Below, in pieces: positions 9,201-50,421 of a DNA stretch of 64,000 bases. This DNA comes from Schmidtea nova. Its lineage: Eukaryota. The first letter of the stretch is position 1. Each line of letters begins with the position of its first letter. A program made the translations under genes and the position numbers. The DNA lies in contig CM097882.1 of NCBI GenBank assembly GCA_044892505.1, positions 13,888,001 to 13,952,000 on the forward strand, read 5' to 3'. The notes under the pieces were generated by a model, which worked only from the letters and a program-made list of their open reading frames with translations, was not told the DNA's origin and searched no databases.

Positions 9201-9466
9201 TGCGCAGATATTACTCTGTCTGGCATTCGAAAAATGGTTTCGCAAAGATTTGCCCGTAAGATTTCTATTTGAAAGCATTTTATTGGAGCAAATTTAGGGT
9301 CATTGATATGACATTCAAGATAGTTATCAATGTCATCATCAGTAAACCATATTTTAGGGTCACGCAATATATTTGTGATTTTAGATGGTTTAAATTTTTT
9401 GGGAAATGTGCTGTCTGCATCAGTCTCTGTTGAGATTGGGGCAGATATTGAGACTGGTGCAGGCAC
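6242..9466 (-). pseudogene. NeSL-like ORF2: Ulp1/C48 protease domain(s) + reverse transcriptase, cut by in-frame TAG
   Basis: RT motifs as above. TAG at 6244-6242 is followed in frame by DLLGWQKLKAY. Confidence 0.92.
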
Positions 9467-9472
9467 ACAACT

Positions 9473-11866: not shown

Positions 11867-11870
11867 TTTT

Positions 11871-12822
11871 GAAAGTGCAAGAAAACACATGTTATTTCCA
11901 AACGAAAAAGAAAGAGTACTTTCAATAATGGTTAACAGAGTTATCGAAGGAAGTTACGGAGGAAATTACAACTTTGATGTGTTATTATCAAAAGAATACT
12001 TTAAAAAAGTAGCATATAAAGTACTATATAGCATATGGGGATACTTTGCAGTCCTTGGAAACATGTTTTCTACAATCTTAGGTATATATTATACGGTTGC
12101 ATTACTAAAAATGATATGTTCTTCTCTAGTATCACTGAGACAGCTAAAACAAGTATTTGGAAATTCATATAAATTATTAGCATGTTTGTGCCCATTTATA
12201 GCTAAATATCTTATTACGGCGAAACACGACAAGGAAATACGTTTAATAAAAGTCCAAAGGAATGAAGAAAGGCAATTATTGGTAGATGATGAAAACGATG
12301 AGGAAATAATTAAAGCGCATATATCACATGAAGGAAATGTACCACAACAAGGACTATATGAAAACCAAAGAGAACAACTAAAAGAGCTACAAGAAAATAT
12401 AGAAATCAAAATTCCTAGAGAAAACAAGAATTGTCACTGTGAACCTAAAAAGATATATGGTTGTTATAGCTTAGAAGTCGAAACAATGGAACGATTAGAT
12501 GCAGCAAACGAAGCAAGACCAAGACTTAAAATAATTATAAACAATATAATCATAAATGCATTAGTAGATACAGGAGCAGCAACATCCTTAATTAGAGAAG
12601 ATCAACTGACAGATGATCAGAAAAGAAATATTATGAGCACAACGGATAAAGTAGTATCGTTATCAGCACATTGTATTCCACTAAAGGGAGACATAGAACT
12701 AATAGTCGAAACACCAGAACAGGTAATAAACCACATATTTAAAGTGGTGCAAGAATGTAATAGCATATGTATATTGGGAATCGATATACTCAACAAGTTA
12801 GAAAATTGCATTATAGATTTAA
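11871..12822 (+). repeat. 952-bp direct repeat, right copy
   Basis: Matches 2848-3799. Shares 4 bp (GAAA) of microhomology with the end of the insert. Confidence 0.95.
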
Positions 12823-13388
12823 CAGATAATACGATAAAGAGAAAAGCAATTAAACATAAATCCAAGTTCACAGAAGTTGTTGCATTAGAAGCATTTGAAT
12901 TGGAATATGAATGCGATCATATTATTCCCTTAAAAGTTAACATCAAAAGTGAGGACACTTTTATTTTTGAGCCAGAAACGGCAATTATACAAAATCAGAA
13001 TATAATGCTAACCAATGAATGCGTAATTCCGAGAAAGGGAATAATACCATTGAGAATAGCAAATTATGAAAAAAGTAATGTTAAAATACACAAAGGTACG
13101 AAATTGGGAAAATTATTCAAAGGTGAATTAGAAAAAACGTACGAAGTTAGTGAGATAAGTGTGATGAATGATAACGGCAAGAAAGTAGTCGAACCTAGTA
13201 AGATAAATAATATAAAATCATATGACAAAGTAAAAATTAATAATGAATACTTAACAATAACACAACAAGCACAACTACAAACATTGATAGATAAATATAG
13301 TGATGTTTTTGCAAAACACGAATTTGATCTAGGAGATACCGATATAATCAAACATGTAATAGATACAGGTAATGCGAGACCAATATAA
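11889..13388 (+). pseudogene. Element A: duplicated glycoprotein tail + retropepsin protease + post-protease linker
   Basis: DTGA. Ends at an in-frame TAA that is followed by QRPYSVPY...WASPIVPVKKKDG. Confidence 0.9.
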
Positions 13389-22959: not shown

Positions 22960-25250
22960 AACTCGGGTGGACTTAGATGGAATGATTAGGGTCACCCTGC
23001 CAACATAAAAATATTACCTCCAAGCCAATACCCATGAATTGCCCCTAATTGCGCCTCCTGTTGGTAATGTATTGAGCGGTGTAGATCAATAGGGCAGGTG
23101 AGCAGCTTAGGGAGTTACAATTCCCCTATCGATACTACGGGTTCATCTTTGACCGATAGAAGGTCTAAATTTCCGTCAAATGTCCCGTCTACGATCTCTT
23201 AGATTTGTTCAAACATGCCCCACATTCATATCCATAGTAACCGTAACAGACAATAAAGAATAACAGCTTCTAAAATCTAACTAAAACGTTTATTTAATTC
23301 ATAAACACATTTGTATTAATGACGTTTATCAGTTGTTTTTCCGTCAGGCTGCTGAGTAAGTCCACTTCAATTCCCATTTATTCCGCAAACGCCGTTCTCT
23401 CACGCCGTCTTTTGGCACCTAATCAGTTCATTTTTTTAGCTTTGATCGGTACGAATTTTGCCTCTGTTGGGGAAGATTCCTGCGTTTTCTCTACAGTCGA
23501 TGTCGATGATAGATTCTCCTTCTGGGCTTCTATTGTCATGTTTTGGGAAGGAACCCATCGTTTGAACGTGATGGCGCTGATTTGATTTTTCAGGCGTCTA
23601 GCAATAAAGTCCTCCAAGACCGTTCTCAGACATCGATTCAACTCCACCTTGGTAGCTGATAGTTCTGTAAATTGCTCCCCGGTGCGTTTTCCTAGGGCTG
23701 TCAAGAATCATATATCCGAATCGGTGTAGCTCTGGGATGTCGATCGGCTAGGGATGGAGTAGCCACCGCGGCTTGCCTTCTTGAGACTTTTCGACTTCTG
23801 CCAATGTAAGATGCTTTCCAATCGTTCTCTGACTTCTGGACAGTCCCTTAGCTAAGTTGGCCGAACTCTCTTTTCCAATTTCGTGCATGTCTACTTATGA
23901 CCGCCTGTACGTACGAGGGTACGTCTAGGGTAGCTGGTACTGGTGAGTGGTTGGTTTTATTTCTCCGACCCCGATCATTTCCTAGATTTGATTTTCTTTG
24001 GTGACCTTTATTTTCGGAAAACTTCATTCCCGCTGGAAATTGATGAAATAAATGTATATAAATACGTTATAGTATTACACCAATCAAGCTTGAGGGCCTC
24101 TGCTCACAAACATATTAGCCTCATTACTCCTTTACTCATTCACCGCCCCTAGTATTATTATTCCATGCATTTACATTTCATTCAGTCAACTCCCTTTATT
24201 TGCATAGTTTACACTACGTATGCCTTTTCTCATGGTTCGATTTGTGTATACGTACTGCGATAGGGCTTTAGATCAAAGTTTAAATTCCGAATATATCTCT
24301 ATCCGCGATCAGCAATATTTTGCTGCGAACTACTCAAGTCTATTGGGACACTTGTTAGATGAATCTATTATCAACTTTCGCTCGAATGGGTGTCATAGTC
24401 ATAGCGAATCAACCTATTTCAGTCTAAATCTTATCGGTTCTGGGTGGTTATGTCGTTCTTAGTGTGATTTTAAAACAATTAGATTTCGATTTACTGGTTA
24501 CTTCCACAAGGTCTTGCGATCGGAATGGTCGGTATATGCATGTGTTTGCCCTCCAATGTGATGGCTCAATGGAATGTGACGTGTGTTTCACTCTTGTGTA
24601 GTTTCTATACTTGTGGATAATATTGTGATCTGCGATGTATAGTATGGTTAAATGTGCTTACTACTACCAACTTGTGGAATGAATCCACTCCAGTGTTTTC
24701 TGATATTAGATTACTACCGTCTCTGAGATAATGAGCTATTATCATGTAATTGTAGTGATGAGTCTTAATCTACTGGGTCTTGATCTACTATACATGGGGA
24801 TACAGCATTACACTGAGTGCAGAACTTGAAAAATTATGGTAAACATCGTCCTGAACCAATGTTCAGGCATCGCCCCCTCTCCCGTATTAGACGTCGGTAC
24901 ACCGCACCGCCAAGCATTCCGGAGAGCGCTAGTTCAGGAGGCCAATTATCAACCGTCGGGTCGCGAGACCGTAGGGACGTGCTCCTAATGATATTATACA
25001 AAATGCATATGAGGGTATAACCAAATCAAATACTAAAACAATTACCCATATCTTTATTATTCCAATGGTTCCAAAGGTTTCGCAATTATACAATGAGTTG
25101 TGTAAAATGACAATAAGTATCAAGGTATAAGTGACAATAAATGATATTACAATTTTGAATTTGGCTGTCCTATTTATTCCATTTCTCCGGATTGCGCCAA
25201 CCAATCAGATTTCATCTTCCATCGCTTAATTAGCATATTTTTATTTTTAA
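22960..25250 (-). other. Decayed GC-elevated cassette of at least 3 co-oriented ORF remnants, origin unknown
   Basis: GC is visibly higher than the flanks. Long minus-strand frames have sparse stops, e.g. ATG 24027 to 23423 with one shift and one stop. Confidence 0.45.
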
Positions 25251-25485
25251 TCAAGTGACTTATCTTGTCAATTACCCGATTTTCAGGTTGTTTGTTTACG
25301 TGTGTTCATTTTATCTTTGATTATTCTGTTAAATAACAGATTTATTCGTTCCATCTAATTCGATTCATTTGTTATATAGGCGCTTTGTGGTGGTCCGGAT
25401 GATGTGTTCTCATTTTGGCTGTTTATTTGTAAGCCTTTTTATCTTTGTTAATTCCTAATAGTAGTAGGAAGTGAGCCCGCCAGAT

Positions 25486-26430
25486 ATAGGTCAAGACCCC
25501 CCCATAGAAAAAAAATTTTTTTATGTAGGTCAAATTTTTCGCTTAAGGACACTTTAAGGTCAAATTTTTCGCTTAAGGTCACTTTGAGGACACTTTAAGG
25601 TCAAAAAAGTAGGTCAAAGTCGTTTTAAGGACACTTTAAGGTGAGTTTAAGGTCAAATTTATGGTTCAAGGACACTTTAAGGACAAAAAAGTAGGTTAAG
25701 GTTGTTTTAAGGACACTATAAGGTCAAAAAGAATGCCAATTTAAGGTCACGATAAGGACAAATAAAGTAGGTCAAATATTTTTAAGGTGAATTTAAGGTT
25801 AAAATAAGTAGGTCAAATATTTTTAAGTTGCTATGACAACGAATAAGTAGGTCAACTTAATTTTTTCAAAATTTGATAGTTGCTATGACAACGAATTAAG
25901 TAGGTCAATAATAATTTTAAAAATTTTTCTATGTCAGAATTAAGTAGGTCAAATATAAAAAACTTGAAAATTTTTCTATGTCAGAAATAAGTAGGTCACG
26001 AAAAATTTTCTATTTCAGAAAAAAGTGGGTCAACTTTATTTTTCTCAAAAATATTTCTATGTCAGAAATAAGTAGGTCAACTTTATTTTTATAAAAATTT
26101 TCCTATGTCAGAATTAAATAGGTCAAATATAAAATTATTCAAAGTTATAATATATTTAAAATATTTTCTATGTCGGAATTAAGTAGGTCAATTTAAGGTC
26201 AATGTGAGGACGAATTAAGTAGGTCAATTTAAGGTCAATGTGAGGACAAATTAAGTAGGTCAATAATAATAATAATTTCTAAAATTTTTTCTATGTAAAA
26301 ATTAAGTAGATTAATAATAAATTTCGAAACTTTTCAAAGTCAGAATTAAGGGTACATTCAGGGTACTATAAGGTCAACAAAGTAGGTCAAATAGATAATT
26401 TTCTATGTCACAATTATGTAGGTCAAATAT
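25486..26430 (+). repeat. Subterminal array of AAGTAGGTCA/AAGGTCA motifs (mirrored at ~33625-34530)
   Basis: About 15 or more GTAGGTCA copies in degenerate 30-45-bp units. Confidence 0.85.
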
Positions 26431-27811
26431 AAAAACTTTAAAATTATTCTATNNNNNNNNNNNNNNNNNNNNNNNNNNNNNNNNNNNNNNNNNNNNNNNN
26501 NNNNNNNNNNNNNNNNNNNNNNNNNNNNNNNNNNNNNNNNNNNNNNNNNNNNNNNNNNNNNNNNNNNNNNNNNNNNNNNNNNNNNNNNNNNNNNNNNNNN
26601 NNNNNNNNNNNNNNNNNNNNNNNNNNNNNNNNNNNNNNNNNNNNNNNNNNNNNNNNNNNNNNNNNNNNNNNNNNNNNNNNNNNNNNNNNNNNNNNNNNNN
26701 NNNNNNNNNNNNNNNNNNNNNNNNNNNNNNNNNNNNNNNNNNNNNNNNNNNNNNNNNNNNNNNNNNNNNNNNNNNNNNNNNNNNNNNNNNNNNNNNNNNN
26801 NNNNNNNNNNNNNNNNNNNNNNNNNNNNNNNNNNNNNNNNNNNNNNNNNNNNNNNNNNNNNNNNNNNNNNNNNNNNNNNNAATATTATTGATAATAATAA
26901 TATTATTGATAATAATAATAAATAAGATTAATCATAATCATAATAATTAATAATAATAATAATATTATTTTTCTTTTTACCCTTTCATTTGTTCATTACC
27001 GATTGTAATTGTCTCATTTCTTTTTCGAAAAGTTCAATCATCTGGCACAATAGATATTCATTTTTAGACAATTCCGATATTTGCATTGATCATCGCGTGA
27101 AACTTGACTGTTGAGAATTTCAAGAATTTTCGGAACACTTTTCTGACAGCCTGAAATAATTAATTACATATGGTTGGAAATTATTGCTAAAAATTAACAA
27201 AAATTACATTTCAAGTAAAATAAAAAATCTAACTAGATAACGCTAAATAAATAATCAAGCATTTCATAGATAAAAATATGTCCTCTTTCTCTAAATTCAT
27301 CTTCACAAACTAAATATAAAGTTATTAAATTAAATAAATATGTATTATATATAAAAATAACCTGAAATGTGATTTAGTAACGATTCCATGTTAACAAGTT
27401 TTGAAACATAATATTGATTTGCCCTAGTACGCTTCACGGTAAATAGGGATAATAAATTCTTCCATAGTGAAGATATAAAAATTTATGTATAAATTATTAA
27501 ATTTGTGTATAAATTATTCAAATTTTTGCAAATAAATACAGTTTTTAAACAAATTATTTAAATTAAATTATTTAAATTAAATTATTTAAAGTTAATTAAT
27601 TAAATATTTAATTTAATTCTTTACTTAGAGAAAAGTAAATAATATTAAATAAATATTATTAAATAATATTAATAATATTAAAAGTTAATTAAGTAAATAA
27701 TATAAATTAATTTAGTTAAATCCAGATTGGTTTTAATAGTCTTCAATTCCGTCCTACTTTTATTAAAATTTTATAAAGTGTCAAATAATGAATTATTTAA
27801 ACACTATTTAA

Positions 27812-28240
27812 TTTAAATATCCAACTCTCCCCTTCTTAAGACCTTTTCCACTTCAGCCACTCGATTCTTCTTCCTTTCATACCTTCTTGCGAGTGTTTTA
27901 CTCGTTATTTGAGTCTGAAATCAAATGGTCACATGTCATTGTGGCGTTCATGTATATAAAACAGATAATGGATAATTCGGGTTCAAATTATGAAAATTAT
28001 TTTCAATGGTCAGTACAGGTATATTATTTTTATTTAATTATATTATTAATATTATTTTAGATTATCGAAAGTGAAATATGTCCCTGGGTTCAAGAAAATG
28101 GACAATGGCAAAAACTACTAGAATTGGCCGAAAATAGTAGAACTATTAGGAAAACCAAAGAAAGATTGAAAAATCTGTTGAAAATAACAATTGGACTCTG
28201 TAGTATTTATGCTATTGTAAATTTAATTCATCGAAAATAA
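27812..28240 (+). CDS. Bcl-2-like gene (BH1-like, BH2, C-terminal TM) with 42-nt intron 28019-28060; 5' end uncertain
   Basis: LFESEIKWSHVIVAFMY...WSVQ|IIESEICPWVQENGQWQKLL...ITIGLCSIYAIVNLIHRK*. The phase-0 GT-AG intron joins in frame. Confidence 0.75.
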
Positions 28241-29282
28241 ATGTATTTTTGTTTAATTGATACATGAATGAAAATATTCAATATGAGCTTTTACAGATAA
28301 AAACCATCACAAAAGATGTTCTGCTACCAATGTTCTGATATTAATGTTCTGTTAGGAAGGTTCTGATACTTGAGATTATTGATACATGAATTAAAATATT
28401 CAATATGAGCTTTTACAGATAAAAACCATCACAAAAGATGTTCTGTTACTAAGGTTCTGATACTAATGTTCTGCTAATAGGGTTCAACTACGGTGTTACT
28501 CATCACATTTTAAGTATGAATTGTTGACATAAATCACTATGATGTATATCACTCATGTCTAAAACACTTTTACTCTATATTTCATGTTATTAATGTAATA
28601 CATGAGTCATGCTCTTGTATTGCAAATGTTATGCACTTGTATTGTTTGTGACATTGCTTGTGTCATACACTTGTGATAATCAGGAACATGCATATTTCCC
28701 TTAAATATTAATCAATTTTAATTATTATTTTCAGAGTAAATTTAATACAAACTAGTAAAGAATATTGACAATTTCTATATATTTTTAACTAATCATTTAT
28801 TGATCAATGATTTTGGGTACTTCATGATGATATAAAAGGGGGTTAAGTTATTGTAAAATGATTGAAAAAATGATAAAACGACGACTATTATTGACCTGTA
28901 CATTCAATTATAGAAATCTTTACAAGTGTAAAAACCATTAATTTTCAACTAATTACTCTAATTAGTTTTTAATTAATTCAGTTTTTTAAAGATTTTTACT
29001 TGTCAACTGAGCTATTTCTATTGTTAACAGTATTTATTGAATTGTAATAAATTTACAAAGTAAATGATGTGAAACTTTTTGAGTTAATTTACATAGAAAT
29101 TTGAGACATTATTTATATCTTTTGAGCTATTTAAAAAATACAAATTAATATTAAACTCTGTAAAAGTAATAGAAAATATAAATGTACGACATAAGCATTA
29201 CTTGCGCTTATATTTAACAAGACTTTTACTAAAAATAAATACTATAAAACACTAACAAAATCGAATAAAAAATAAAAATTTA

Positions 29283-29648
29283 TCAAATAACAACAACATT
29301 TTGGGCTCTATGCCATCTCTCCAACTGGTATAGGAGCTCCTCTTTGTCTTTCATGAGCCTCCAATTTGGGCAACATTTGCAATGTGTGCAACAAATTGGC
29401 TCCAACTTTATTGGAGGCTCTGCCATGTTCCTTTTGTGTTCTGCGATCACCTCTTTTAGGTTCACGCCGCAGAACAACCATATCTTCAGATTTATGTGTT
29501 CAGGAGCCCAGAACATCATATCTTTCATCTCCTGGGGATAGAGCCTTCCCATCATATCCAGAGCGATTTGCAACAATGTTTCTAAATAATTAAAATTAAT
29601 TAAATTATATTAAAAACATTTAGGCTTACCGTCTAGAGAGCTTGACAT
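29283..29648 (-). CDS. Mirror copy of the two-exon Cys-rich gene (3 aa differences in exon 2)
   Basis: Reverse complement of 30513-30879 with T/M, P/L and Y/H changes. Confidence 0.7.
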
Positions 29649-30512
29649 GTTTTTCTATTTAACTGAATAAGTGATTCGTATATATACAAATTTGAAACAT
29701 ACACATCGACCAATCAGAAACATGCACACATATATTTTAAATTATAACGTTTAAATTTCAAATACCGCAACGTAAGATATTCATAAAATACCTCAACGTA
29801 ATAACAGTTGGTATATATCTTTCAGAATTTTATAAGTAATTCAATTTTAAACAATGAACACTATCAACAACGATTATACTGATAGCGAAATTAGTTCTCA
29901 AGTTGAATGTTCTCAAACTGAAATAGTTCACAGTACAAGTTCTCAACATGCAAGTAATTGTATATTTATTTATTTATTTTCTAAAATTATCATTACTTTT
30001 ATTAGAAAAAATTAAGACAATAACAAAAGAAAGAACTAATTTAAAGAAATAATTTTTAAACACACAAAATATTCACAGATAAGTCGATTGAGTGGTCATA
30101 GCTATTGTTCAACCCCACCATCATTAAATGCAAAACATTGTACTGTCAATGTAAAAAATACCGATAAATTGTATTATATATATATATATAGAGTATTTTA
30201 CTTATTTTAAAATATGAAGAGGTAAAATCTAACAGAAGTAAGTCTTATAATAATTATATTTCAGACCTTGTCTTTGACTCTTATGATCAGCCGATGAATT
30301 TATGTAATATTCACAATTGAATTACTTATAAAATTCTGAAAGATATATACCAACTGTTATTACGTTGAGGTATTTTATGAATATCTTACGTTGCGGTATT
30401 TGAAATTTAAACGTTATAATTTAAAATATATGTGTGCATGTTTCTGATTGGTCGATGTGTGTGTTTCAAATTTGTATATATACGAATCACTTATTCAGTT
30501 AAATAGAAAAAC

Positions 30513-30879
30513 ATGTCAAGCTCTCTAGACGGTAAGCCTAAATGTTTTTAATATAATTTAATTAATTTTAATTATTTTAGAAACATTGTTGCAAATCGCT
30601 CTGGATACGATGGGAAGGCTCTATCCCCAGGAGATGAAAGATATGATGTTCTGGGCTCCTGAACACATAAATCTGAAGATATGGTTGTTCTGCGGCGTGA
30701 ACCTAAAAGAGGTGATCGCAGAACACAAAAGGAACATGGCAGAGCCTCCAATAAAGTTGGAGCCAATTTGTTGCACACATTGCAAATGTTGCCCAAATTG
30801 GAGGCTCATGAAAGACAAAGAGGAGCTCCCATACCAGTTGGAGAGATGGTATAGAGCCCAAAATGTTGTTGTTATTTAA
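30513..30879 (+). CDS. Two-exon small Cys-rich protein (MSSSLDE|TLLQIALD...CCTHCKCCP), intron 30532-30580
   Basis: ATG exon, GTAAG donor, TTTTAG acceptor, in-frame join; ATTGG (reverse CCAAT box) upstream. Confidence 0.7.
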
Positions 30880-31920
30880 TACACTTTTATTTTTATTCGA
30901 TTTTGTTAGTGTTTTATAGTATTTATTTTTAGTAAAAGTCTTGTTAAATATAAGCGCAAGTAATGCTTATGTCGTACATTTATATTTTCTATTACTTTTA
31001 CAGAGTTTAATATTAATTTGTATTTTTTAAATAGCTCAAAAGATATAAATAATGTCTCAAATTTCTATGTAAATTAACTCAAAAAGTTTCACATCATTTA
31101 CTTTGTAAATTTATTACAATTCAATAAATACTGTTAACAATAGAAATAGCTCAGTTGACAAGTAAAAATCTTTAAAAAACTGAATTAATTAAAAACTAAT
31201 TAGAGTAATTAGTTGAAAATTAATGGTTTTTACACTTGTAAAGATTTCTATAATTGAATGTACAGGTCAATAATAGTCGTCGTTTTATCATTTTTTCAAT
31301 CATTTTACAATAACTTAACCCCCTTTTATATCATCATGAAGTACCCAAAATCATTGATCAATAAATGATTAGTTAAAAATATATAGAAATTGTCAATATT
31401 CTTTACTAGTTTGTATTAAATTTACTCTGAAAATAATAATTAAAATTGATTAATATTTAAGGGAAATATGCATGTTCCTGATTATCACAAGTGTATGACA
31501 CAAGCAATGTCACAAACAATACAAGTGCATAACATTTGCAATACAAGAGCATGACTCATGTATTACATTAATAACATGAAATATAGAGTAAAAGTGTTTT
31601 AGACATGAGTGATATACATCATAGTGATTTATGTCAACAATTCATACTTAAAATGTGATGAGTAACACCGTAGTTGAACCCTATTAGCAGAACATTAGTA
31701 TCAGAACCTTAGTAACAGAACATCTTTTGTGATGGTTTTTATCTGTAAAAGCTCATATTGAATATTTTAATTCATGTATCAATAATCTCAAGTATCAGAA
31801 CCTTCCTAACAGAACATTAATATCAGAACATTGGTAGCAGAACATCTTTTGTGATGGTTTTTATCTGTAAAAGCTCATATTGAATATTTTCATTCATGTA
31901 TCAATTAAACAAAAATACAT

Positions 31921-32349
31921 TTATTTTCGATGAATTAAATTTACAATAGCATAAATACTACAGAGTCCAATTGTTATTTTCAACAGATTTTTCAATCTTT
32001 CTTTGGTTTTCCTAATAGTTCTACTATTTTCGGCCAATTCTAGTAGTTTTTGCCATTGTCCATTTTCTTGAACCCAGGGACATATTTCACTTTCGATAAT
32101 CTAAAATAATATTAATAATATAATTAAATAAAAATAATATACATGTACTGACCATTGAAAATAATTTTCATAATTTGAACCCGAATTATCCATTATCTGT
32201 TTTATATACATGAACGCCACAATGACATGTGACCATTTGATTTCAGACTCAAATAACGAGTAAAACACTCGCAAGAAGGTATGAAAGGAAGAAGAATCGA
32301 GTGGCTGAAGTGGAAAAGGTCTTAAGAAGGGGAGAGTTGGATATTTAAA
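31921..32349 (-). CDS. Mirror copy of the Bcl-2-like gene
   Basis: Reverse complement of 27812-28240; the exon base at donor -1 is G>T. Confidence 0.72.
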
Positions 32350-35199
32350 TTAAATAGTGTTTAAATATTTCATTATTTGACACTTTATAAAATTTTAATA
32401 AAAGTAGGACGGAATTGAAGACTATTAAAACCAATCTGGATTTAACTAAATTAATTTATATTATTTACTTAATTAACTTTTAATATTATTAATATTATTT
32501 AATAATATTTATTTAATATTATTTACTTTTATCTAAGTAAAGAATTAAATTAAATTTTTAATTAATTAACTTTAAATAATTTAATTTAAATAATTTAATT
32601 TAAATAATTTGTTTAAAAACTGTATTTATTTGCAAAAATTTGAATAATTTATACACAAATTTAATAATTTATACATAAATTTTTATATCTTCACTATGGA
32701 AGAATTTATTATCCCTATTTACCGTGAAGCGTACTAGGGCAAATCAATATTATGTTTCAAAACTTGTTAACATGGAATCGTTACTAAATCACATTTCAGG
32801 TTATTTTTATATATAATACATATTTATTTACTTTAATAACTTTATATTTAGTTTGTGAAGATGAATTTAGAGAAAGAGGGCATATTTTTATCTATGAAAT
32901 GCTTGATTATTTATTTAGCGTTATCTAGTTAGATTTTTTATTTTACTTGAAATGTAATTTTTGTTAATTTTTAGCAATAATTTCCAACCATATGTAATTA
33001 ATTATTTCAGGCTGTCAGAAAAGTGTTCCGAAAATTCTTGAAATTCTCAACAGTCAAGTTTCACGCGATGATCAATGCAAATATCGGAATTGTCTAAAAA
33101 TGAATATCTATTGTGCCAGATGATTGAACTTTTCGAAAAAGAAATGAGACAATTACAATCGGTAATGAACAAATGAAAGGGTAAAAAGAAAAATAATATT
33201 ATTATTATTATTAATTATTATGATTATGATTAATCTTATTTATTATTATTATCAATAATATTATTATTATCAATAATATTNNNNNNNNNNNNNNNNNNNN
33301 NNNNNNNNNNNNNNNNNNNNNNNNNNNNNNNNNNNNNNNNNNNNNNNNNNNNNNNNNNNNNNNNNNNNNNNNNNNNNNNNNNNNNNNNNNNNNNNNNNNN
33401 NNNNNNNNNNNNNNNNNNNNNNNNNNNNNNNNNNNNNNNNNNNNNNNNNNNNNNNNNNNNNNNNNNNNNNNNNNNNNNNNNNNNNNNNNNNNNNNNNNNN
33501 NNNNNNNNNNNNNNNNNNNNNNNNNNNNNNNNNNNNNNNNNNNNNNNNNNNNNNNNNNNNNNNNNNNNNNNNNNNNNNNNNNNNNNNNNNNNNNNNNNNN
33601 ATAGAATAATTTTAAAGTTTTTATATTTGACCTACATAATTGTGACATAGAAAATTATCTATTTGACCTACTTTGTTGACCTTATAGTACCCTGAATGTA
33701 CCCTTAATTCTGACTTTGAAAAGTTTCGAAATTTATTATTAACCTACTTAATTTTTACATAGAAAAATTTTTAGAAATTATTATTATTATTGACCTACTT
33801 AATTTGTCCTCACATTGACCTTAAATTGACCTACTTAATTCGTCCTCACATTGACCTTAAATTGACCTACTTAATTCCGACATAGAAAATATTTTAAATA
33901 TATTATAACTTTGAATAATTTTATATTTGACCTATTTAATTCTGACATAGGAAAATTTTTATAAAAATAAAGTTGACCTACTTATTTCTGACATAGAAAT
34001 ATTTTTGAGAAAAATAAAGTTGACCCACTTTTTTCTGAAATAGAAAATTTTTCGTGACCTACTTATTTCTGACATAGAAAAATTTTCAAGTTTTTTATAT
34101 TTGACCTACTTAATTCTGACATAGAAAAATTTTTAAAATTATTATTGACCTACTTAATTCGTTGTCATAGCAACTATCAAATTTTGAAAAAATTAAATTG
34201 ACCTACTTATTCGTTGTCATAGCAATTTAAAAATATTTGACCTACTTTTTTCTGACATAGAAAAAATTTGAAAATTATATTTGACCTACTTATTTTAACC
34301 TTAAATTCACCTTAAAAATATTTGACCTACTTTATTTGTCCTTATCGTGACCTTAAATTGTCATTCTTTTTGACCTTATAGTGTCCTTAAAACGACCTTG
34401 ACCTACTCTTTTGACCTTAAAGTGTCCTCAAAGTGACCTTAAGCGAAAAGTTTGACCTTAAAGTGTCCTTAATCGAAAAATTTGACCTACATAAAAAATT
34501 TTTTTCTATGGGGGGGGTCTTGACCTATATCTGGCGGGCTCACTTCCTACTACTCCTAATCTATTTTTATTTAGATTCAAAGTAATTTTATCGGTTCAAT
34601 TTATTTTTGTTTTGTTTCCAATTTAATATTGGAATGAACCCTAATTTGTTGCCCAACCAAAATAAATTCAATAAAAACTAGTAAAAATATAAAATATATC
34701 ATTCTTGAGGTTATTTTCATGAGACATATAAAAAATTCGAATAGGGATTTCATATAAATTCAACATCAAGTAAAATTTCATACTTGTTATAATTTTATAG
34801 TTTTTAATATTTCATCTTTAAAATTTCCAATTCTTTTTAAAAATGTTCCAAAATGTTTTTAAAACACTGCCTTTCCATTTCTATATAGGGTTTTTCTCAA
34901 CCTAAAAATGCTTTAAAAACATTTTTTATTATTTTAATCAATTTATTGGGTTATGGAGTTGTTGGTGAAATTGAAAAGTTACCAATTAATTCTCTGAATC
35001 CAAAGCGTGCTTTATTGATCAATAAAATGACTATTAACAACAGGAAAAATTACACTGGTACAACCAATCAATAATATGAAATAATTATACAGTGATTATT
35101 ACGACACTTAGAAGAATAGCACTAGTGTAGAATATCTCCGTCTAACGATCACTAGTTACTGATTTAAATTCAACAATGAATAAAAAAAACTAATTTTTC

Positions 35200-35700: not shown

Positions 35701-37679
35701 AAACATCACTTCATTTACTCTGCTTATGTTCCCCCAATCATTTTATTTATTTGTGAGAATATTTAATTTATGATTAATGATAACTTTCAGCAATAAAAAA
35801 TAAGTTTACTTACAATGACAATCATGAATTTGCTTTGAAACTTCCTTATTTTATTAGTTTCTATTAGATTTAATTTTTTTGCATCTATTAAAACAAAATC
35901 TATAATAAATTTGTTTATTTAAAAACTATCCAAAAATTTCTGATTTCCTAATTAGAAGTGTATTGTGTCATATCTAGAGCAATACTTTCCTCCCTTAGAA
36001 TTTATGGTCGAGTAATTATGATGTGAGTAAACTAGATTTAGCGGGAAATTTGGTGTAAACTATTTATGCAGAAATTTGCTGTGTGTAAACCAATTTTGGT
36101 GTTAATTTAGGGTGTGTACAAGAACTTTTGAAGGAATATAGTGTGTGTAAACGAAAATACGCATGAATTTTAAGTACGTGTAAACAAACGTTGACTTTAA
36201 TTTAGCGTGTTTTAACAAAGTGGTTCAAAAATATTTTGTTTAAATAATGTTTACTAGTATTTCAAGGTAACATAATAAATAACTAAGACAATTTTGTGAT
36301 AATATTTATAAGGCATAACGTAATTTCATCATAAACTACCTTCTTCATATATTGTTTTCATTTTATCATCGCAATAATTTCCATATGCATGACTTTGATT
36401 ATTTTCAATCCTATTTTTTATCGTCAGCATTTGTTAAAACAACTTTCGACTGTTGGAAACTAAATAATTGATGATTTTGTGTACCAATTCTACATTGTGG
36501 TACTATAAACCTTCCGTTGATATTATAACTATCTAGAAGCGACTGATTTTTGATGTCAGTACCCTTCAATGTTATTACTTTAGCTTTCATGGATTATTTC
36601 TTTCATAACAAACTATAACATTTTCATCTTAAAAAGACTAATTTTATATATCTATCACTTACTTTCACACCTGAACTGTTAATAACTGAATCCAATTTCC
36701 TGAAAAAGAGTCTATGATCTTAAGGATAAAAGACCTATCCAACAGATTGTCATTAACCAGTAATGATGTATCTAATTTAATATTTTTACATTCCGACAAA
36801 ATACTATTGGTATTTCAAGGAACAATAATTGTTTCGCAACTGAATTGTGCTCGATATTTTGCTAACTCTAGATATTTTTAGTGACACATCCGAAGTTTCA
36901 ATAAATCCAAATTTCATTAATCTATATAGTTGGATCTATCTTAACAAATAGATTCTTTATTTAACAAGGCATCTATTAAATTATCATCAATCTTAACACT
37001 TCTTCGAAACGTTGGGTTGATAATATATCTAATCATCTTCAGTTCTGTATTACATAGCCTCAAATTCATTGTTCTTCAAAATTTTGAATGTTTTCTCTAC
37101 ACATTGTTGGGTTCTTGGGTTGTTGGTGAAATGGTAAAAGTTACCAATCAAATATCTGACTCCAAACGTGCCTTTTAATTGACCTCAATAACAATTAACA
37201 CTGGAAACTTTATTGAATAAAACAAATATTGTCTTTAACACTTAATTGACCAAAATCAACAGACCAACAATTGATTATACGGTGCTTTTTACGACACGAT
37301 GGTGAAGAATAGCACTTTGTATAATCTTGGCTCGAACAATCACTCACTACTGAGGGGAATAACAATTGGTAATCTGGCTGGTTGTTTTCTGGGTTTGACT
37401 TGGGTTTACTGGTTGAATTTTACTCTATTAGTAATCGATGATTACGGGTTTCACTCAATTTTCTGTCACGTCCTTTATTTTCTTCTCTTTCAGTTTCGTC
37501 TGGCTTCACACAATCTTTCAATCTCTCCAATAATTTCCTATATATTTTCTTAAATCTTCTCCCAAACCTCTGATTATTATATTCTGCTCTTTAAACTTCT
37601 TTCTCCAATTCTGTCAAAACTTCTCTCTAAATTTCTCTGAAACTCCTGGCCAATTTCTTGAAATTTCTGAAAATGTCTC

Positions 37680-39790: not shown

Positions 39791-42289
39791 GATGTTTCAT
39801 TATAACATTTACGATTTTCTCTCATATGTTTAATTTAATAGTAGCATAATATTAATTAACTTAAGTATTAATCTGTGAAATTAATATTTCATAAAACAGA
39901 ATAACTCAAAATAATAATAAGTTAAGAATATTTTTTAATAAATAATTAACATTCATTTCTATTTTCCAGATTTATAGGTCGTGAGCACTGCTCCTAATTG
40001 ATAAATACTGTAAAAATCAAATTATAGACTGCTAACTTGACATATTAATAATAAAAAGCTGATTAACATCATAACAATAAAGGTAAAATACATTAATGAC
40101 AATAATTCACTAATTTTGGCGATATATTCCCTTTCCAATTTTTTTATTGGGAAAAATCATATTTATATTTTTACATAAATTTTATGTACAATAATAAAAT
40201 AGGAAAACGCTCGATTTTATATAAATATCATCATTCATTTTAATGTAACAAAATTGGATTTTTATTTGAATAAAGAATACTTGTATTAAAATTGTTAGAT
40301 GTCGTTAAAACATCTTCATTTAAATCAGAATCGAAAATCATATCAAAAATATTTATTTAATTCAAGAATGATTTTAATCGTTGAGAATATTTAAACTAAA
40401 AACTAAAATTTGTTATTTAAAATATTTATTTAAAATTATTTTTATGAAATCTATTTATAAAATTTTAATTTAATTTATTTTTTTAAAATAAAACTTTAAA
40501 AACTAAATTTAACCATTTTCATGTAAAAACACTTTTATAAAATTTATTTATAATTATTATTCTAAAATCTATTTATATAAAATTTTAAATCATATTTATT
40601 ATTTAAAAAATGAAACATTTAAAACTTAATTTAACTATCTTAAAATACTTATTTGAAATACGTAATAAAATAACTATTTTATTATCTGTAAAATATTTTA
40701 CTCTAATTTAATTATTTAATTTTAATGTTCATTAATAATCNNNNNNNNNNNNNNNNNNNNNNNNNNNNNNNNNNNNNNNNNNNNNNNNNNNNNNNNNNNN
40801 NNNNNNNNNNNNNNNNNNNNNNNNNNNNNNNNNNNNNNNNNNNNNNNNNNNNNNNNNNNNNNNNNNNNNNAATTAAATATATATTTTATTGGAAAATTAT
40901 ATGTGTTGAATCTAAAGTAAAATAATATATATTACAAATTTCTTTTAAATAAAATTAAATATTTTGATTTTATAAACTGAAAAATAGTGTAATATTAATG
41001 GAATTTTTCCGCATTTCTTCAATCGTGTTAAACCGAAACCGGGAAAATGAGTACCGTGTAAATCGAGGACTTTGTGTATTCGACATATAAATGAAAAAAT
41101 ATTAAAATCTCATAATTCAATTATCATCATTCATTAAAAACCAGTTTACTCGTATTTTGATTTATCGGAACAGGAATATAAATATTCAAAAACTAGTGAT
41201 CTCTTCAGGTTGTGTAGAGTATTATTTGAATGTGGAATTTTATTTTTCTAATTTTTCCAAAACCATAATGAAATTTGAATAATAATTACTCAAACTTTTG
41301 TATTTAAAGAATAAACAAAACTCAACAGGTTTTTTGTTTTATCAAAGTCGTAATATAGCATGTAGATCTCGCTCAAGTAAATTTAAAATTTGTAATGAGA
41401 AACACCGAGCAAATAAATTAATGACACAACACATCAAAAATTAAATAAAACACGTTTAAAAAATAAAATGAACAAAGGCGCACCAAGTAAACATGTAAGA
41501 AACATAAAAATAAAACATTAATTGCAATAAATTAGGTACAAATTAGAAAAATTTAGATGTTTCATGGAAAATCTTTCGATTTATATAAGTATTAACGATA
41601 AAATACAAAAGAAAATTGATTTGAAGAAACTTTACGAAATTTCGTTAAATTAGTAATAACATTGTTAAAACTAATTTTTGTATATTAAAATAAATATATT
41701 TAACTCTAATAAAATTTTAGACAAAAATATTAATTTAATTTTTGACAAAATAAAAACTATTTAATTCAGAAAATCTAAAAATTCAAACATGAAAATTTTG
41801 TTTTACTGCATCAAATGAGGAAGTAAAAGATTTCACTAAATAAGCCGCATCCAAATTGAAAAACAAAATTGTTCACTAATTTGTAAATTAACTTGTAACT
41901 TGTTGATGTATTTTCTTTTATTTATTACTTATTATTATTCATTCATATCTACTGTTTATACAGGATAAACCAATAAGTTTTGTCCGCTGCTCATACTCAG
42001 CTTTCCAATGCTGTAATGACTGTATAGGTCTGCAACTTTGTGTGTCTATGCTACATATATGTTGTAAATTTGTAAAATTTAAAAAAATCACTTATTAATA
42101 ATTTTTAACATTGCTTTGATTATTAACTTTGATATGTCTTACATGGATTAAGCATTTTTAATAAATTTCTTGTTTGACTGAAATAATTTTTGTTTTCATT
42201 AGAATACGTCGATTTCAAATGAATTTCGCAAGAGAGGATATCCGCAAGTTAATCTACTACAATCGGAAATGAAATAAATTTGACACTTG

Positions 42290-44296
42290 TGTTGGGCAAA
42301 AACCACAAATGTTTTAATAAAGCGATAACCCCATAGGTAGAGAGCGCGCAAGATTTAGTTTCAACCCAAAAATCCATTTAAAAATCCAAGCGATTAAGTG
42401 GAAAACACCAAAAGGTGAAGTGGACTCAAAACACATCAACCAGTAGAGAACGCGCTAGCTGGGAGTCTAAAAGCCCTTACATTGAAACCTCGAGAAAAAT
42501 CAAATGCCATCAAAAGAAGAACGTTTAAAAGTTAGAATAGGCGGAAAACCCATTGAAAATACCCATAAAGAACGGAATTGTGTTATAAAACCTTCATGCA
42601 GAAAAAATTAACAGAATTTTAGCCGAAAATTGTGATTTTAGCAAAATATTTCACATTAACAATAAAAAGAACTAATATTGATCGAAATATCGTAAATTAA
42701 ATCAAATCGAACAAATTTCGATTCAAAAACAAAAATTTGGAATTAAAATAAATTATTTGTGTTTTGCAAAAAATTATTACACAAAAATATGGATTTAATT
42801 TTTGGAAAATCATTAGAATTCATTTAGAAAAATTAAAAGGAAAATTCTAGAATAATTTGTTTTATTACACTGGTGAAGGTGACGAAAATCGATGGTATAT
42901 ATACCGCCATCAAAATGGCAGAAATCAGAATTGGTGAATAATTTTCTGTTTAAGAATTTTTGCAGAATTGATTTTGAGAATCTAGTAAAAATTTTTGTTT
43001 GTGGAAAAAAAGAAAAATTCGGTAAGAAACATTCTTTTGTTCGGTGCGGGGTCACTGAACAGCATGCCCTTTCAGTTACCCCGTACCTGGTATTATTTTG
43101 TAAATTTTATTGCCTATATGTATCATAATCAGTTTTAATTATTATATATTTAATGAAAGTTATTTTGTTTTTTTTATTATTTTGATTTTAATCTCGTCAT
43201 AGGTTCCCATGATTCACGGAAATTCGTTTTAATATTTATTACACAAAAATAAAATTGATTAAATTTTTTTTTCTTCCGTACCCCCTGAAGCCTGTGTCTG
43301 GCCTTGCGCCGATCGGGTGGAAGTAGCCTGAGCGGATCGCTGGTTCGATACGTAAATCGATCAGTCCATATTTCCGAGTCCAGGTGAATAGCCTAACCAT
43401 CCATGATCACTTCATCCCAACTGGGGAACAGTGGCTTGGCCAAAGGCAAGGTGTTATATTAATGATATTTAATTTATAATAAATGTAGTTTATTTGAATT
43501 TATAATTTCCGACATATTTATCATCTAAAAATTAATACTACATGAAAACGTGAAAACGAATCTCTCCAGCAATGTCTTTTCCATTAGGAAAAATAATTGT
43601 ACAAGAACATTTTACTCATCGTCGCCTTCACTCTCGCAACAACCGTCATCTTATCCGTAAACACAAGTCAATGGAAGCTAATGTTTGAAAAGAATCATAT
43701 GAAATAATGCTCAAAACTGATATAATGATCATGAAATGAAATGAATTTAGGACAAGTATTGATTGATCTGAATTAAAACTCATTCATTATATAAATAAAT
43801 TTTCTCTGGTGAATCTTGTTTTCGGGAGCCTGAAGTTCCTAAGTGAATTGTCCCGAAAAATTCGCGCGCACTTGGGTTGGGAAATTCATGCTCGGACGAA
43901 ACCGAAATTTACTTTACTTGATATTAAAAATATTCGTTGAAAAATTTATAACTTATTTTTATTTTTATTTAGCATATAAAAAAACTTTTTAGATTAAATG
44001 CTTATTTGGATTTCTAAATTGATGGATAAAAATTTATTATTATGTGGATTTCGTTTTGATCAAAAAATAAAAATTTGCTTTTTATTATATTGAAAAAATT
44101 TTTTTATAATGAAAAATTGTAAACCAAAAATTTTCCTAATATTGTTATGATATAAAAGATTTTGTCATTTTATAAAATTTCTAAGAGTTTATAAATCAAA
44201 ACTTATACTGCCACCCATAAAAATTTTAAATCGAGAATATTATTATTATTTTATAAAATCCAAAATTTCGAAATTTTATAGAAAGAATTTTTACTA

Positions 44297-44381
<85 letters not shown>

Positions 44382-46080
44382 TTAAAATATAAAAATTCGA
44401 ATAAAAAAATGTATATTATAAAAATTAGAAATTTTATTATTATATTATTCTCATAAAATTATAAATTTAAAATTTATAAAAAGTAATATAAAAATGTATA
44501 TTATAAAATTAGAGATTTTATTATTATATTACTTTCATAAAATTATAAATCTAAAATTTATAAAAAGTATTATAAAAATGTGTATTATAAAAATTAGAAA
44601 TTTTATCATTATTTAATTTTCATAAAATTATAAATTTAAAATTTGTAAAAAGTATTATAAAAATTATTATTATTATTTTAATATAAAATTATTATTATTA
44701 TTTTAATTTTAAAAATATTTTATATAATTTATATATAGTATATTATAAATACCCCCACGATATCTCAAAATCATAACACATCCCTATTTGCAAAAATTTA
44801 CATCCATTTCATTCAATAACATTTCCCATACTAATACACAAGCAACATACATTTAAAATACAATATACACACATACACAGTATCATTTATTAGCATTCAA
44901 TAGTTATATACACACAGGCAAACCATACTGAAAATTCTACACAGTTATGTTAGTCTGCATCACACATCCAGAAAAACCCTACAAAAATTTCATTCACTTA
45001 TATCTATCATTCAACCATACCATAAAAAATTGAATATACCCAGCCAAACTTATTACAATCAAATAGGCCTTTTACATTATAGTTTAATTTACAAAATTAC
45101 ATAAAAATAATAAATAATAAACGAAAAAGAATAAAAAACTAATATCAAAAGAAAAATTTTATTAATCAAAATTGATAGACTTCATTCCGTTTGAGGAATA
45201 AAAACCCCCGACAAGGATTTTTCTTGTTTGTGGTTCTGAAGAGGCCGGTTCCTCGTATTCGCTTTGGAAATTTTTCTAAAATTGTTCAAAATAAATTATA
45301 ATTCTAAAATAATCAAAATTTTACTTGGTCGATAGAGTTGGCAATTTTGCTTCGTAGGAGCTGGAGTTCTAGTTTTTTTGACCCATTTTGGGTGGGAGAA
45401 TTTTCCTCTGACTTCGTAGTTTCCGGGGAGATCCATTTCTTGTTGATCTGAACTTTAGAACTCATTATTTAATCAATTTAGTGAAAAATTCAGAAACTTA
45501 CATTTAAAATTAATATGATTTTTAAATTGAGTAAATTTGTCCTTTTGATTAAATTAGCAATTTTAAACAAACGGAAATTTTATTTTTATTATTTCTAAAC
45601 TCGATAAAATTACGGTAATAATTAGAGTTTTTCTTAAATTTTAAATGCAGATTAAAATTTTTCTATAAAAATAAAGTATTTTATGTATTAATTATCATAA
45701 ATTGCAATATTGGTAAAATTTAAGGTTATATTAGTGTTTTCGATGCTCGGAATAATTTATTTGGATGCAATAATGAATTTATAGTTATGTAGAGTGTTTA
45801 TGTTGAATTTCCGATAAAATTTTGTTGAATGCTTATAGATAAATCATTAAAGGAGGGACAAAATTGGCATTAAACCTTCTATCGGTAGCCCTTGGACCCA
45901 GGAGATATTCGGTCAATCATAGTTTCGTATTGACGACGCTCACTGATTGCGAATACCCACTCACTTGTTACAGTACCATCGTTACATAGTGACGGGTAAC
46001 AAGATGGTTATTTCAATGTTTTATGTGTTGAGTTGTTGATGAGAGCCATAGTAACGTCAAGGTCATATTGACGATCAACA
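42290..46080 (+). repeat. Putative 5' LTR (~3.8 kb, TGTTG...CAACA)
   Basis: The first 1151 bp match 62843-64000. The right end is inferred from CAACA 18 nt before the PBS. Confidence 0.7.
44300..44378. repeat. (TA)n microsatellite inside the LTR; others at ~21288-21317 (TA)n and ~47231-47286 (TAT)n
   Basis: Seen directly in the sequence. Confidence 0.95.
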
Positions 46081-47228: not shown

Positions 47229-47288
<60 letters not shown>

Positions 47289-48532
47289 CATTTTAGTTAT
47301 TATTNNNNNNNNNNNNNNNNNNNNNNNNNNNNNNNNNNNNNNNNNNNNNNNNNNNNNNNNNNNNNNNNNNNNNNNNNNNNNNNNNNNNNNNNNNNNNNNN
47401 NNNNNNNNNNNNNNNNNNNNNNNNNNNNNNNNNNNNNNNNNNNNNNNNNNNNNNNNNNNNNNNNNNCGTGAGTGGTACTGTCGATATCATAATTATTATT
47501 AGCGATATTGGTGTTATTTTGACCGTTAATTATTAATTGAGAATGACTGAGGTATGACCCCTGTAATTTTATTTTGTTGGCAAAGAAGGACATGGAAATT
47601 ATCGGGTCTAAAAGAGATAACAACGGAAATGGATCAATACGTAAATTGTTTGTTTTAATTGATACAATGATACAGTAGAGAATGAATGATATAATCTAAT
47701 AAGTTTGGAGTTTGAATGTTGGGAAAAATTAGACTGTTGAAGTCAAAAATGATGCATGATAGTGATATTGAAAGGTTGATCGCGACTCAATTCGGAAATC
47801 GAAGTCGGGAATAACTCTAAAATCTTATGAAATCATAAATTAATATTTAACAACGACTTAAAAACGAATATAATGATATAGAATCAAACAAGAAAACGTG
47901 AGACTTAGCGCAAATACGAAAATTTTGAGATACACAAAATTAGGAACCTAGTAAAAGGAGGTGTTATATGACCATAAGATATGGGATGGAGTTCACGCGA
48001 ATCGCTTAGAGAATGAATATTCGAATACACAAAAATTGCTTCCAGTAAACGAAAAATTACCAAAAATTGCGAATACCGTAAATAAAAAATATAATTATTT
48101 TAAAATTGATAAAAAGTGTAAAAATTGTGAAAAAAATGTGTAAATAAATGTTTAATTATTTTTTATTTAGAAAATATTAGTATATTTAAAAAAAAATATA
48201 AAAAAAAATCATAAAAATTATGTACATAATGGCTGATTATTTTATTTATATTATTCGAAAAAATATCGAATATGGACGAATGGAGAAAATTATAAAAATA
48301 TAAAAATATAAAAAATATAAAAATATAAAAATATATGTATAAAAATGCCTGAATATTCTGTTAGTAGTAGTTTTGAAAAAATACAAAAATATATAAAAAT
48401 ATATAAAAAATTATAAAATTTGTGTACATAAATATTGAAGTTTTTATTATCTATTTTCGTTCAAATTTTAATAAATGGTTGACTCATGTTGATTCAAAAA
48501 GTTGTAAAAATCAGTCATCATGAATATTTTAG

Positions 48533-49015
48533 ATGGAATCAATTGAGCATATTTTACTACGAATCGAGACGTTTTTTAATTTTGAAAATGATCCATTGCT
48601 GGTGTTGAGCGAGAAACTCGAACGAGTGAATGAAATAAAAGATGAATTATTGTTGAATCCTAGACCACAACCTGAGAATCTGATAGTGATTTCAGGAATT
48701 GTAGGAACAACAAACGATATTTCGTTAGAAACGGTTTATGAATTACAACGATTGCGACTGAATAATCCGAATTTCAATCTAAAAATACAAGAATGGATTG
48801 GTAAAATCGATAAAATCATGGATAAGCTAGAGAGATCGATAAATCAACAGATCGATTTGTTTGAAAGATGTTATATTTGTCGACAAAGAGAAGCGAACAT
48901 CTTATTCATGCCATGTGGGCATTTGCGTTATTGACAGCTGTGCTCGAGAGAAATAAAGAGATGCGTAATCTGCAAACAGACAATTGATGACAAAATCGTC
49001 GTATTTTGTTCATAA
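48533..49015 (+). pseudogene. IAP/MDM2-type C-terminal RING protein with TGA at a Cys position
   Basis: CYICRQREANILFMPCGHLRY*QLCSREIKRCVICKQTI. Confidence 0.85.
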
Positions 49016-50020
49016 AGAATGTCATTCAAAATAAACGTTTTGGTCGTGTTGAACTTCGTCGATCATCCAATACTCCAAACCGTCGTAAAAATTAAATAAA
49101 CAAAGAACACTAGGTAATTAATGACTGAGAATCGTGTAAAAAACATAACAAGTAACGGCTAATGCCGAAAAATCAAACATTAGGAAAATGGGAATCTGTG
49201 ACAAAGTTACTTTTCTTTTCTTTTTGAATTTTCTTTTTTATTATTATTATAAATCCTCCTCATCATTATTATATTGATACAAATTTCATTACTATAAGTC
49301 TTCCTCATTACTGTTATTATATTGATTATCATTATTATATCGACCATTAGGACGAGCAATAAGTAGCGTTATAAAAGTTGATATTATAAGGAGAACCCTC
49401 TGAAATTAAGTAGGAAATGAGTGTCTGAGTAGAAAACGGGAAAATAGTACAAAAATTCATAACTGAGCTATCAAAAGATAGTACGCCAATTTTTTTGTTG
49501 TTGTTGTTGAAAAATTAGTAGACAACAAACGGGGAAAAACTTGATCACCCTGAGGAAAGAGAGTAGAATAGGATATCCATCGCACATGTTGACGAAATTT
49601 CGTTTGTGACTGATCATCACAAATGGCGAAACTAGTTGATGCGATTATTTTACGATTTTGAATTAGGTGAAAGGGTAACCCGTAATGTTCGTCTTATACA
49701 CCAGTTTGCCAAGGCATGATTGGTACACTGAGGTAGAGGACAGTAACATGAATAAGGAGAAAGTTGCTGAGAAAATCAGATGCAGATCTTAGAAAGTCGA
49801 AAGAGTAAAAAGCGAATTTCGATGATTACAGTAGATGATAGTATAATAAGAAAAGATTCTACCATGGTAGTTAAGGAATTAATTCGTAATTGAAAAGTAG
49901 TAGAACAATTTGAGAAAAACAGCCAGTAATAGCGAATTTATTTCTGAAATTGAAAATTGAGAATAGGGAAACGAGTGAATAAATAGTATAAAGAGAATAA
50001 TTGAAGACGGCCGAGAAAAA

Positions 50021-50421
50021 GTGAGAGACTTTGAGAGTCCAGATAATTGAGAAACTTTGAGAGTTCAGTGATAGACTTCGAGAGTACAGATAATTGAGAA
50101 ACTTTGAGAGTTCAGTGAGAGACTTTGAGAGTCCAGATAATTGAGAAACTTTGAGAGTTCAGTGAGAGACTTTGAGAGTCCAGATAATTGAGAAACTTTG
50201 AGAGTTCAGTGAGAGACTTCGAGAGTACAGATAATTGAGAAACTTTGAGAGTTCAGTGAGAGACTTTGAGAGTCCAGATAATTGAGAAACTTTGAGAGTT
50301 CAGTGAGAGACTTTGAGAGTCCAGATAATTGAGAAATTTTGAGCGCTCTGGGAGAGACTTTGAGAGTCCAGATAATTGAGAAACTTTGAGAGTTCATGTA
50401 TGTGAGAGACTTTGAGAGTCC
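50021..50421 (+). repeat. 47-bp tandem array (~8.5 copies), itself a dimer of ~23-bp subunits
   Basis: Unit GAGACTTTGAGAGTCCAGATAATTGAGAAACTTTGAGAGTTCAGTGA. Confidence 0.95.

Follow-up and report, generated by a model that had tools for sequence, protein, structure and literature searches.

The stretch analysed here, called the window, is 64,000 nucleotides (nt) of Schmidtea nova DNA (contig CM097882.1 of assembly GCA_044892505.1, positions 13,888,001 to 13,952,000 of the forward strand), and coordinates are counted from its first letter. At 25460-34554 it holds an element of 9095 nt, N included, made almost wholly of two mirror-image arms facing each other across a short spacer and bounded by a target site duplication (TSD), which we tentatively read as a derivative of a Polinton/Maverick. 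Its ends, arms and spacer are as follows.

25454..25459, plus strand: left TSD, CCTAAT
25460..29846, plus strand: left arm of 4387 nt, of which 428 nt are an N gap, starting with AGTAGTAGG
25460..25775 (end approximate), plus strand: outermost zone with a surplus of arm differences, a candidate natural terminal inverted repeat (TIR)
28256..28485, plus strand: stretch of 122 nt duplicated in tandem inside both arms, its two units 91% alike
29847..30314, no strand: unique spacer, 468 nt, with a candidate gene start at 29854 (plus strand) and a 52-nt GT-AG intron
30315..34554, minus strand: right arm of 4240 nt, of which 320 nt are an N gap, finishing with CCTACTACT
34555..34560, plus strand: right TSD, CCTAAT

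The left terminus is AGTAGTAG and the right terminus CTACTACT, short motifs of the AG..CT type, and CCTAAT abuts both directly as a perfect 6-bp TSD. When the boundaries were shifted symmetrically (n = 13), 25460-34554 was the single parse in which the two ends match over a long stretch and a 6-nt direct repeat flanks them; given the composition of the flanks, the probability of any 6-nt flank match by chance is about 5.6 × 10−4. The flanks themselves are not mirror images (58 of 200 positions identical), and the 12-nt terminus has no additional copy elsewhere in the window. The end motif of Polintons/Mavericks is (AGT)2//(ACT)2 or (AG)3//(CT)3; the element has the former, which with a 6-bp TSD is the commonest signature of vertebrate Mavericks (PMC8097293). 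The initial annotation had claimed Polinton termini and a perfect 6-bp TSD, and both claims hold. Because the ends and the TSD are of Polinton type, a Polinton-type integrase most likely made the insertion. The other group found to have a 6-bp TSD, IS3EU/GingerRoot, fits in TSD length but not in its termini, which are TA..TA or TG..CA (PMC10045372) against AG..CT here, and Ginger elements have TSDs of 4-5 bp (PMC2836005).

The arms make up 95% of the length of the element, and matching between them ceases at 29846/30315. The spacer has no similarity to the arm or to the rest of the window except (AT)n and chance words. An end of about 4.3 kb mirrored around a 468-bp spacer had been proposed, as the computed lengths confirm, and the structure had been called a snap-back palindrome; the mirror symmetry stands, while a loop of 468 nt makes the shape a panhandle or copy-back rather than a hairpin or snap-back, in the terms of PMC6140465.

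In length the arms depart from what is described for Polintons. TIRs of vertebrate Mavericks span 46-1447 bp (PMC8097293) and the range given for Polintons is 100-1500 bp (bioRxiv 2023.08.22.554363), so that arms of 4.2-4.4 kb, at 4387 and 4240 nt, lie outside the roughly 50-1500 bp expected and are about 3 times the longest in the vertebrate survey. The statement that Polinton TIRs are normally far below a few kb agrees with the 46-1447 bp survey, but it has to admit a multi-kb precedent, the approximately 2-kb TIRs of butterfly polintons, in which genes are duplicated (bioRxiv 2025.02.07.637071). That precedent lends something to the view that the element belongs to an established family with natural giant gene-bearing TIRs, this copy being an ordinary internal deletion with no fold-back, and so does the variability of TIR length within families (PMC8097293; PMC3573991). 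We regard this as distinctly unlikely, since 4.3 kb is twice the butterfly precedent and about 3 times the 1447-1500 bp that usually mark the upper limit. The butterfly elements share with this one an expanded, gene-duplicating inverted repeat but are full-length with hexon and adenain duplicated, whereas the element described here consists of repeat to 95%. The coding differences between the two copies of gene A, described next, also bear on this view: 3 of 3 change a residue, so that nothing indicates selection on both copies, although the sites are few.

The arms are not gene-free. They carry small intron-bearing genes, one well supported (gene A) and four that are candidates only (genes B-E), with GT-AG introns of 42-52 nt at an intron GC of 0.05-0.14 against 0.27-0.47 in the candidate exons.

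29283..29648, minus strand: gene A, left copy, with a 19-nt exon, a 48-nt GT-AG intron and a 299-nt exon
30513..30879, plus strand: gene A, right copy, whose exon 2 is P0001, 99 amino acids (aa)
27968..28201, plus strand: candidate gene B, with a 51-nt exon, a 42-nt GT-AG intron and an in-frame exon 2, mirrored in the right arm; exon GC 0.30-0.33, intron GC 0.05
27813..27914, minus strand: weak candidate for a coding exon (C), 33 codons with a TTTCAG acceptor upstream and a mirror copy in the right arm; its GC is 0.39, and neither Pfam nor PHROG gives a match
27038..27410, minus strand: weak candidate for a small gene of several exons (D), with approximate exon boundaries and a mirror copy in the right arm; two of its candidate exons were measured and have GC 0.27-0.36, and PHROG gives no match

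The splice of gene A preserves the frame in both arms, and its copies differ by three amino acids, all 3 of the codon differences in the amino-acid-coding part being residue-changing, which fits drift. Among 1.84 billion representatives the 99-aa exon has one relative, P0002 (E = 5 × 10−11, 34% identity), with a conserved Cys-Cys-x-Asn-Trp; the alignment score is 167, and the maximum among 2000 shuffles is 57. On this sequence evidence gene A is well supported as a gene. The second of the two matches in that search, P0003 (E = 2 × 10−4), is a tandem-repeat protein matched over 24 residues and was set aside as spurious. A word search with P0001 among proteins of 54-174 aa found no relatives, and a profile search of longer proteins returned 1 of 428 candidates, P0002 itself. 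Past its first ~95 residues P0002 carries a MARVEL domain, and since this part looks like an unrelated joined gene model, P0002 gives no function for gene A. The fold model of gene A is of low confidence (predicted local distance difference test score 52) and has no match at E ≤ 0.001 in BFVD or PDB; in all, Pfam, PHROG, Atlas, BFVD and PDB give no family or fold match for it. For exon 2 of gene B, 0 of 14 candidates proved to be relatives.

In all six frames, the sequenced part of the element runs for at most 108 aa without a stop codon, which leaves no room there for a polymerase, integrase or capsid gene. The protein-primed polymerase and retroviral-like integrase of Polintons/Mavericks are thus absent, the gaps as given holding just 428 and 320 nt, and under the same 108-aa limit so are capsid, packaging ATPase and protease. 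Four candidate peptides have no Pfam match, the best of 8 peptides against PHROG has E = 0.048, the highest Atlas scores of the element's peptides are 0.79 and 0.83, values that shuffled proteins also reach, and Rfam has no match across 25000-35000. The element resembles Polintons/Mavericks in its (AGT)2//(ACT)2 termini, 6-bp TSD and inverted repeats (PMC8097293; bioRxiv 2023.08.22.554363), but those are 13-25 kb long and this is 9.1 kb without the core genes. Since it falls outside the definition in TIR length, in size and in every core gene, we class it not as a Polinton in the strict sense but as a probable non-autonomous derivative of one. The earlier observation that no polymerase, integrase or capsid gene is visible is thereby upheld.

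What the arm does resemble, by analogy, is the cargo end of a Maverick, with a terminal repeat array followed by small intron-bearing genes. In nematode Mavericks, a region of 2-5 kb with intron-bearing genes between one TIR and the integrase is common (bioRxiv 2022.07.12.499685). Size, introns and position beside one TIR look alike; the nematode region is single and of high GC, whereas here it is duplicated, AT-rich, and holds small genes of no known family.

The arm stops a few bases before the candidate ATG at 29854, just past TATA-like and initiator-like words (29700-29860), a CCAAT box lies at 29710 between two divergent genes, and the mirror copy of this candidate promoter region (30300-30460) faces the spacer from the opposite side. 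The idea of an inward promoter at the arm/spacer boundary, suggested by these words, is weak because TATA-like matches are common in AT-rich DNA (20 on the plus strand in 3.4 kb).

Toward the outside, both arms have an array of one short motif.

25488..26425, plus strand: subterminal repeat array with 26 RGGTCA motifs (34 RGGWCA), all pointing inward
33601..34554, minus strand: right terminal segment with 26 inward RGGTCA motifs

Of the RGGWCA spacings, 9 of 33 are 11 nt. The count of 26 RGGTCA compares with a shuffle mean of 1.5 and maximum of 5, but this null is unfair for a tandemly amplified region, so the surplus shows repetition and not function. The motif resembles, presumably as a likeness of sequence, nuclear-receptor half-sites. 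The outer terminal kilobase has no match among plasmids. A scan for sigma-70 promoters gave 7 against 8.5 expected, which is chance level, and is irrelevant to an animal host.

Such an array raises the thought of a Foldback-type non-autonomous cut-and-paste transposon, not a Polinton, whose transposase would bind the RGGTCA sites. The strict orientation of the array would suit it, and the long, internally repetitive TIRs with inter-arm differences in repeat number are the pattern of Galileo/Foldback, where 2RT copies are likewise non-autonomous and almost wholly TIR (PMC3573991). However, Galileo is of the P-element superfamily, with a TSD of 7 bp where this element has 6, and TIRs up to about 1.26 kb (PMC3573991); IS3EU/GingerRoot, the 6-bp alternative, has the wrong termini (PMC10045372), and AGT-repeat termini with a 6-bp TSD are the Maverick pattern (PMC8097293). 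We consider a Foldback-type origin very improbable. Galileo is also a precedent for how arms may grow: in its TIR1-F1-F1-TIR2 product the TIR has lengthened by taking in sequence that lay at one end, its longest TIRs occur in non-autonomous copies, and inverted-repeat expansion is reported in passing for Polintons also (PMC3573991).

How far the palindrome can be trusted as assembled depends on two runs of N, here read as assembly gaps.

26453..26880, no strand: left-arm N gap, 428 nt, adjoining an 18-nt AT-only repeat
33281..33600, no strand: right-arm N gap, 320 nt, mirror of the left gap

Both start and stop at exactly mirrored bases, and because they lie in both arms, scaffolding alone joins the 6.4-kb centre to the TSD-bearing ends; the TSD vouches for the two outer kilobases and not for the scaffolded centre. 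It may be, then, that the centre is mis-assembled or misplaced, the locus being a real Polinton with TIRs of about 1 kb and the 6.4-kb palindromic contig either chimeric or pieced together from several copies of the family. Mirrored gaps that sever the centre from both ends are what this would give, a 1248-nt block identical between the arms could stem from shared reads, and amplification chimeras resemble inverted duplications with a short spacer. Yet no N interrupts the centre, there are 15 sites at which its arms are unlike, the flanks are unmirrored with a direct TSD, and the gap lengths differ by 108 nt, 6 times the 18-nt period of the adjoining AT-only repeat, as if they had been measured (a coincidence of about 1 in 18). 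We judge mis-assembly to be quite improbable. Each gap length equals 14 modulo 18. The window has 4 further N runs, mostly within AT-rich or repetitive sequence.

The differences between the arms are the record from which the order of events might be read. There are 22 substitutions and 6 indels over 3877 aligned columns, for an overall identity of about 99.4%. The outer segment has 9 substitutions and 4 indels, including whole-repeat-unit indels of 82 nt and 44 nt, and the inner segment has 13 substitutions and two 1-base indels over 2966 nt. The outermost 315 of the 3877 columns hold 11 of the 28 difference events (P = 0.0002) and 7 of the 22 substitutions (P = 0.017). That the arms differ at scattered sites, as first described, is correct as to the differences and not as to an even scatter, the outer end being favoured. 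At 29267-29284, at the 3' end of gene A, four arm differences fall within 18 nt and resemble one complex mutation.

Our preferred reading, with a rough probability of 0.4, is that the element is a Polinton/Maverick derivative without core genes in which an inverted repeat has extended inward until it replaced the core. Support for it comes from the Maverick-type termini and TSD, the lack of room for core genes, gene A with its relative, and the surplus of differences at the outer ends. On this account the arm would be the cargo end of the parent, made up of the terminus, the motif array and, over about 3 kb, the small genes with introns. An internal break in the parent would have let the far end pair with or invade the near TIR and act as a primer, so that some 3.5-4 kb of the near end was copied, up to 29846; joining of this newly made strand to the broken end at 30314 would have left 468 nt as the loop. 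The two outermost ~0.3-0.4 kb would be more diverged because they would be the parent's own two natural ends. Primer bases at the junction would have been absorbed into the arm, so junction microhomology is not readable. Copying may have taken place in a racket-shaped single-stranded intermediate, of the kind proposed for Polintons (PMC4196379), or in the chromosome; a single copy cannot distinguish the two, and if it was in the chromosome the element never integrated in trans. The element could not replicate alone, and any movement would be by the polymerase and integrase of a helper. The structure is unusual, and a single copy cannot show its route of formation.

The main competitor is pure copy-back, in which a nascent strand from one terminus folds back and copies itself to the end, and a helper's integrase inserts the molecule. 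It suits the long arms, the small loop of unique sequence and the clean TSD, and the arm identity of about 99.4% is near that of the pair of long terminal repeats (LTRs) of a nearby element (3 substitutions and 1 indel in ~1154 nt), so that drift after insertion could explain most of the differences. Panhandle or palindromic defective genomes occur in adenovirus and yeast linear plasmids. Copy-back defective viral genomes have complementary ends around a loop, as here, and depend on a helper, as this element presumably would, but they are described for RNA viruses, and this is integrated DNA (PMC6140465). Pure copy-back predicts arms identical at birth with differences spread evenly, and what is found is an outer concentration with two large repeat-unit indels; nor is the element known in a second copy. 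We hold it to be doubtful, though a serious contender; the uneven differences fit extension of a natural TIR by copying of the opposite end somewhat better.

The initial annotation had gone further, deriving both termini from one and the same terminus; the 99.4% likeness of the arms would allow this, while the concentration of differences in the outermost 315 aligned columns is what retention of both natural ends of the parent would give, with the interior copied from one side. It had also taken the palindrome to be formed beforehand and integrated in trans; this too finds no particular backing, as break repair in place, by the Galileo mechanism, yields the same anatomy and TSD.

Several observations weigh against extension of a natural TIR. 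The outer surplus falls to P = 0.058 once one indel-adjacent substitution is dropped, and it is P = 0.073 when the split is preset at the N gap. The identical 1248-nt block (P = 0.004), like the 6 difference events crowded into 70 nt (P = 0.00014), points to conversion or assembly effects able to blur the age signal; later conversion between the arms could likewise produce the uneven pattern, or the repeat-rich outer zone may simply mutate faster. As for gene A, the homologous part of P0002 has no Pfam match, a sequence search of PDB gave 0 matches, and neither P0002 nor the arm has a link to a known Polinton. Nor did the analysis meet with a parent element.

A wider reading, which we think unlikely, would make the element one of a mobile, multi-copy planarian family of defective-interfering Polinton mini-genomes, two cargo ends joined head to head, which a helper would replicate and integrate. 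Through the nuclear-receptor-like RGGTCA sites at each end, activity could depend on a signal of the host, and the spacer, if transcribed from both sides by the candidate inner promoter region and its mirror copy, could give double-stranded RNA that silences the helper. Were this true, the family would be a fossil of the panhandle and strand-displacement cycle so far just proposed for Polintons. The replication cycle of animal Polintons is a sequence-derived model, and a palindrome with a defined junction makes it testable from genome data alone: recurrence of the 29846/30315 junction at loci with different TSDs would mean that such molecules arise ahead of integration and are mobilised by a helper, and a single locus would mean collapse in place of an integrated element. 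The small uncharacterised cysteine-bearing protein and the oriented motif array are candidate features of a planarian Polinton end. If this is one rearranged copy, or a family with natural long TIRs, the addition to TIR dynamics is modest. Among the open-licence papers and preprints listed, none reports a Polinton derivative that is palindromic over almost its whole length, or arms this long. Rearrangements of a C. elegans locus have Polinton TIRs at them (bioRxiv 2024.01.15.575659).

The flanks of the element have no tblastn match to 15 retroelement open reading frames (ORFs) of the window. In a Pfam scan of 21 proteins, 17 of them outside the element, neighbouring ORFs show TRAF/MATH, BIR, RING and ankyrin domains, a weak SUMO-like match, an aspartic protease, and a Monjiviricetes fusion domain preceding protease, reverse transcriptase (RT) and integrase, a set of domains described for Burro elements of dugesiid planarians (PMC6431247), which makes a dugesiid the probable host. 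A Burro-like LTR element of ~21.7 kb occupies 42287-64000, with repeats at 42287-43440 and 62840-64000 (3 substitutions, 1 indel) and TRAF, BIR-RING, ankyrin and protease ORFs, many in broken pieces; 0 of its 9 scanned ORFs match RT or integrase. By eye, a second, decayed IAP-type RING-like frame lies upstream of these ORFs at 48533-48934 on the plus strand.

At 4841-11953 on the minus strand, inside a Burro-like element, is a non-LTR retrotransposon with an Ulp1 protease and RT, which we take to be NeSL-like, its three long ORFs sharing one frame and separated by single stops. Two direct copies of 961 nt of the fusion/protease region (99.7%), at 2848-3808 and 11871-12831, bracket it; a duplication of this length far exceeds the usual target duplication and is put down to recombination or an assembly effect. 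A 94-nt exact repeat lies at 4473-4566 and 11781-11874. Long ORFs continue in frame past a single stop at 6242, 9473, 13386, 17897, 57563 and 58723, for which decay is likelier than recoding because all three stop codons occur. Tandem arrays are found at 50020-50422 (47 nt × 8.5), 44400-44673 (85 nt × 3.2), 44300-44379 ((AT)40) and 47230-47304 ((ATT)25), and in the right flank of the palindromic element a repeat of ~89 nt, 81% identical, is present at 34943-35025 and 37104-37191.

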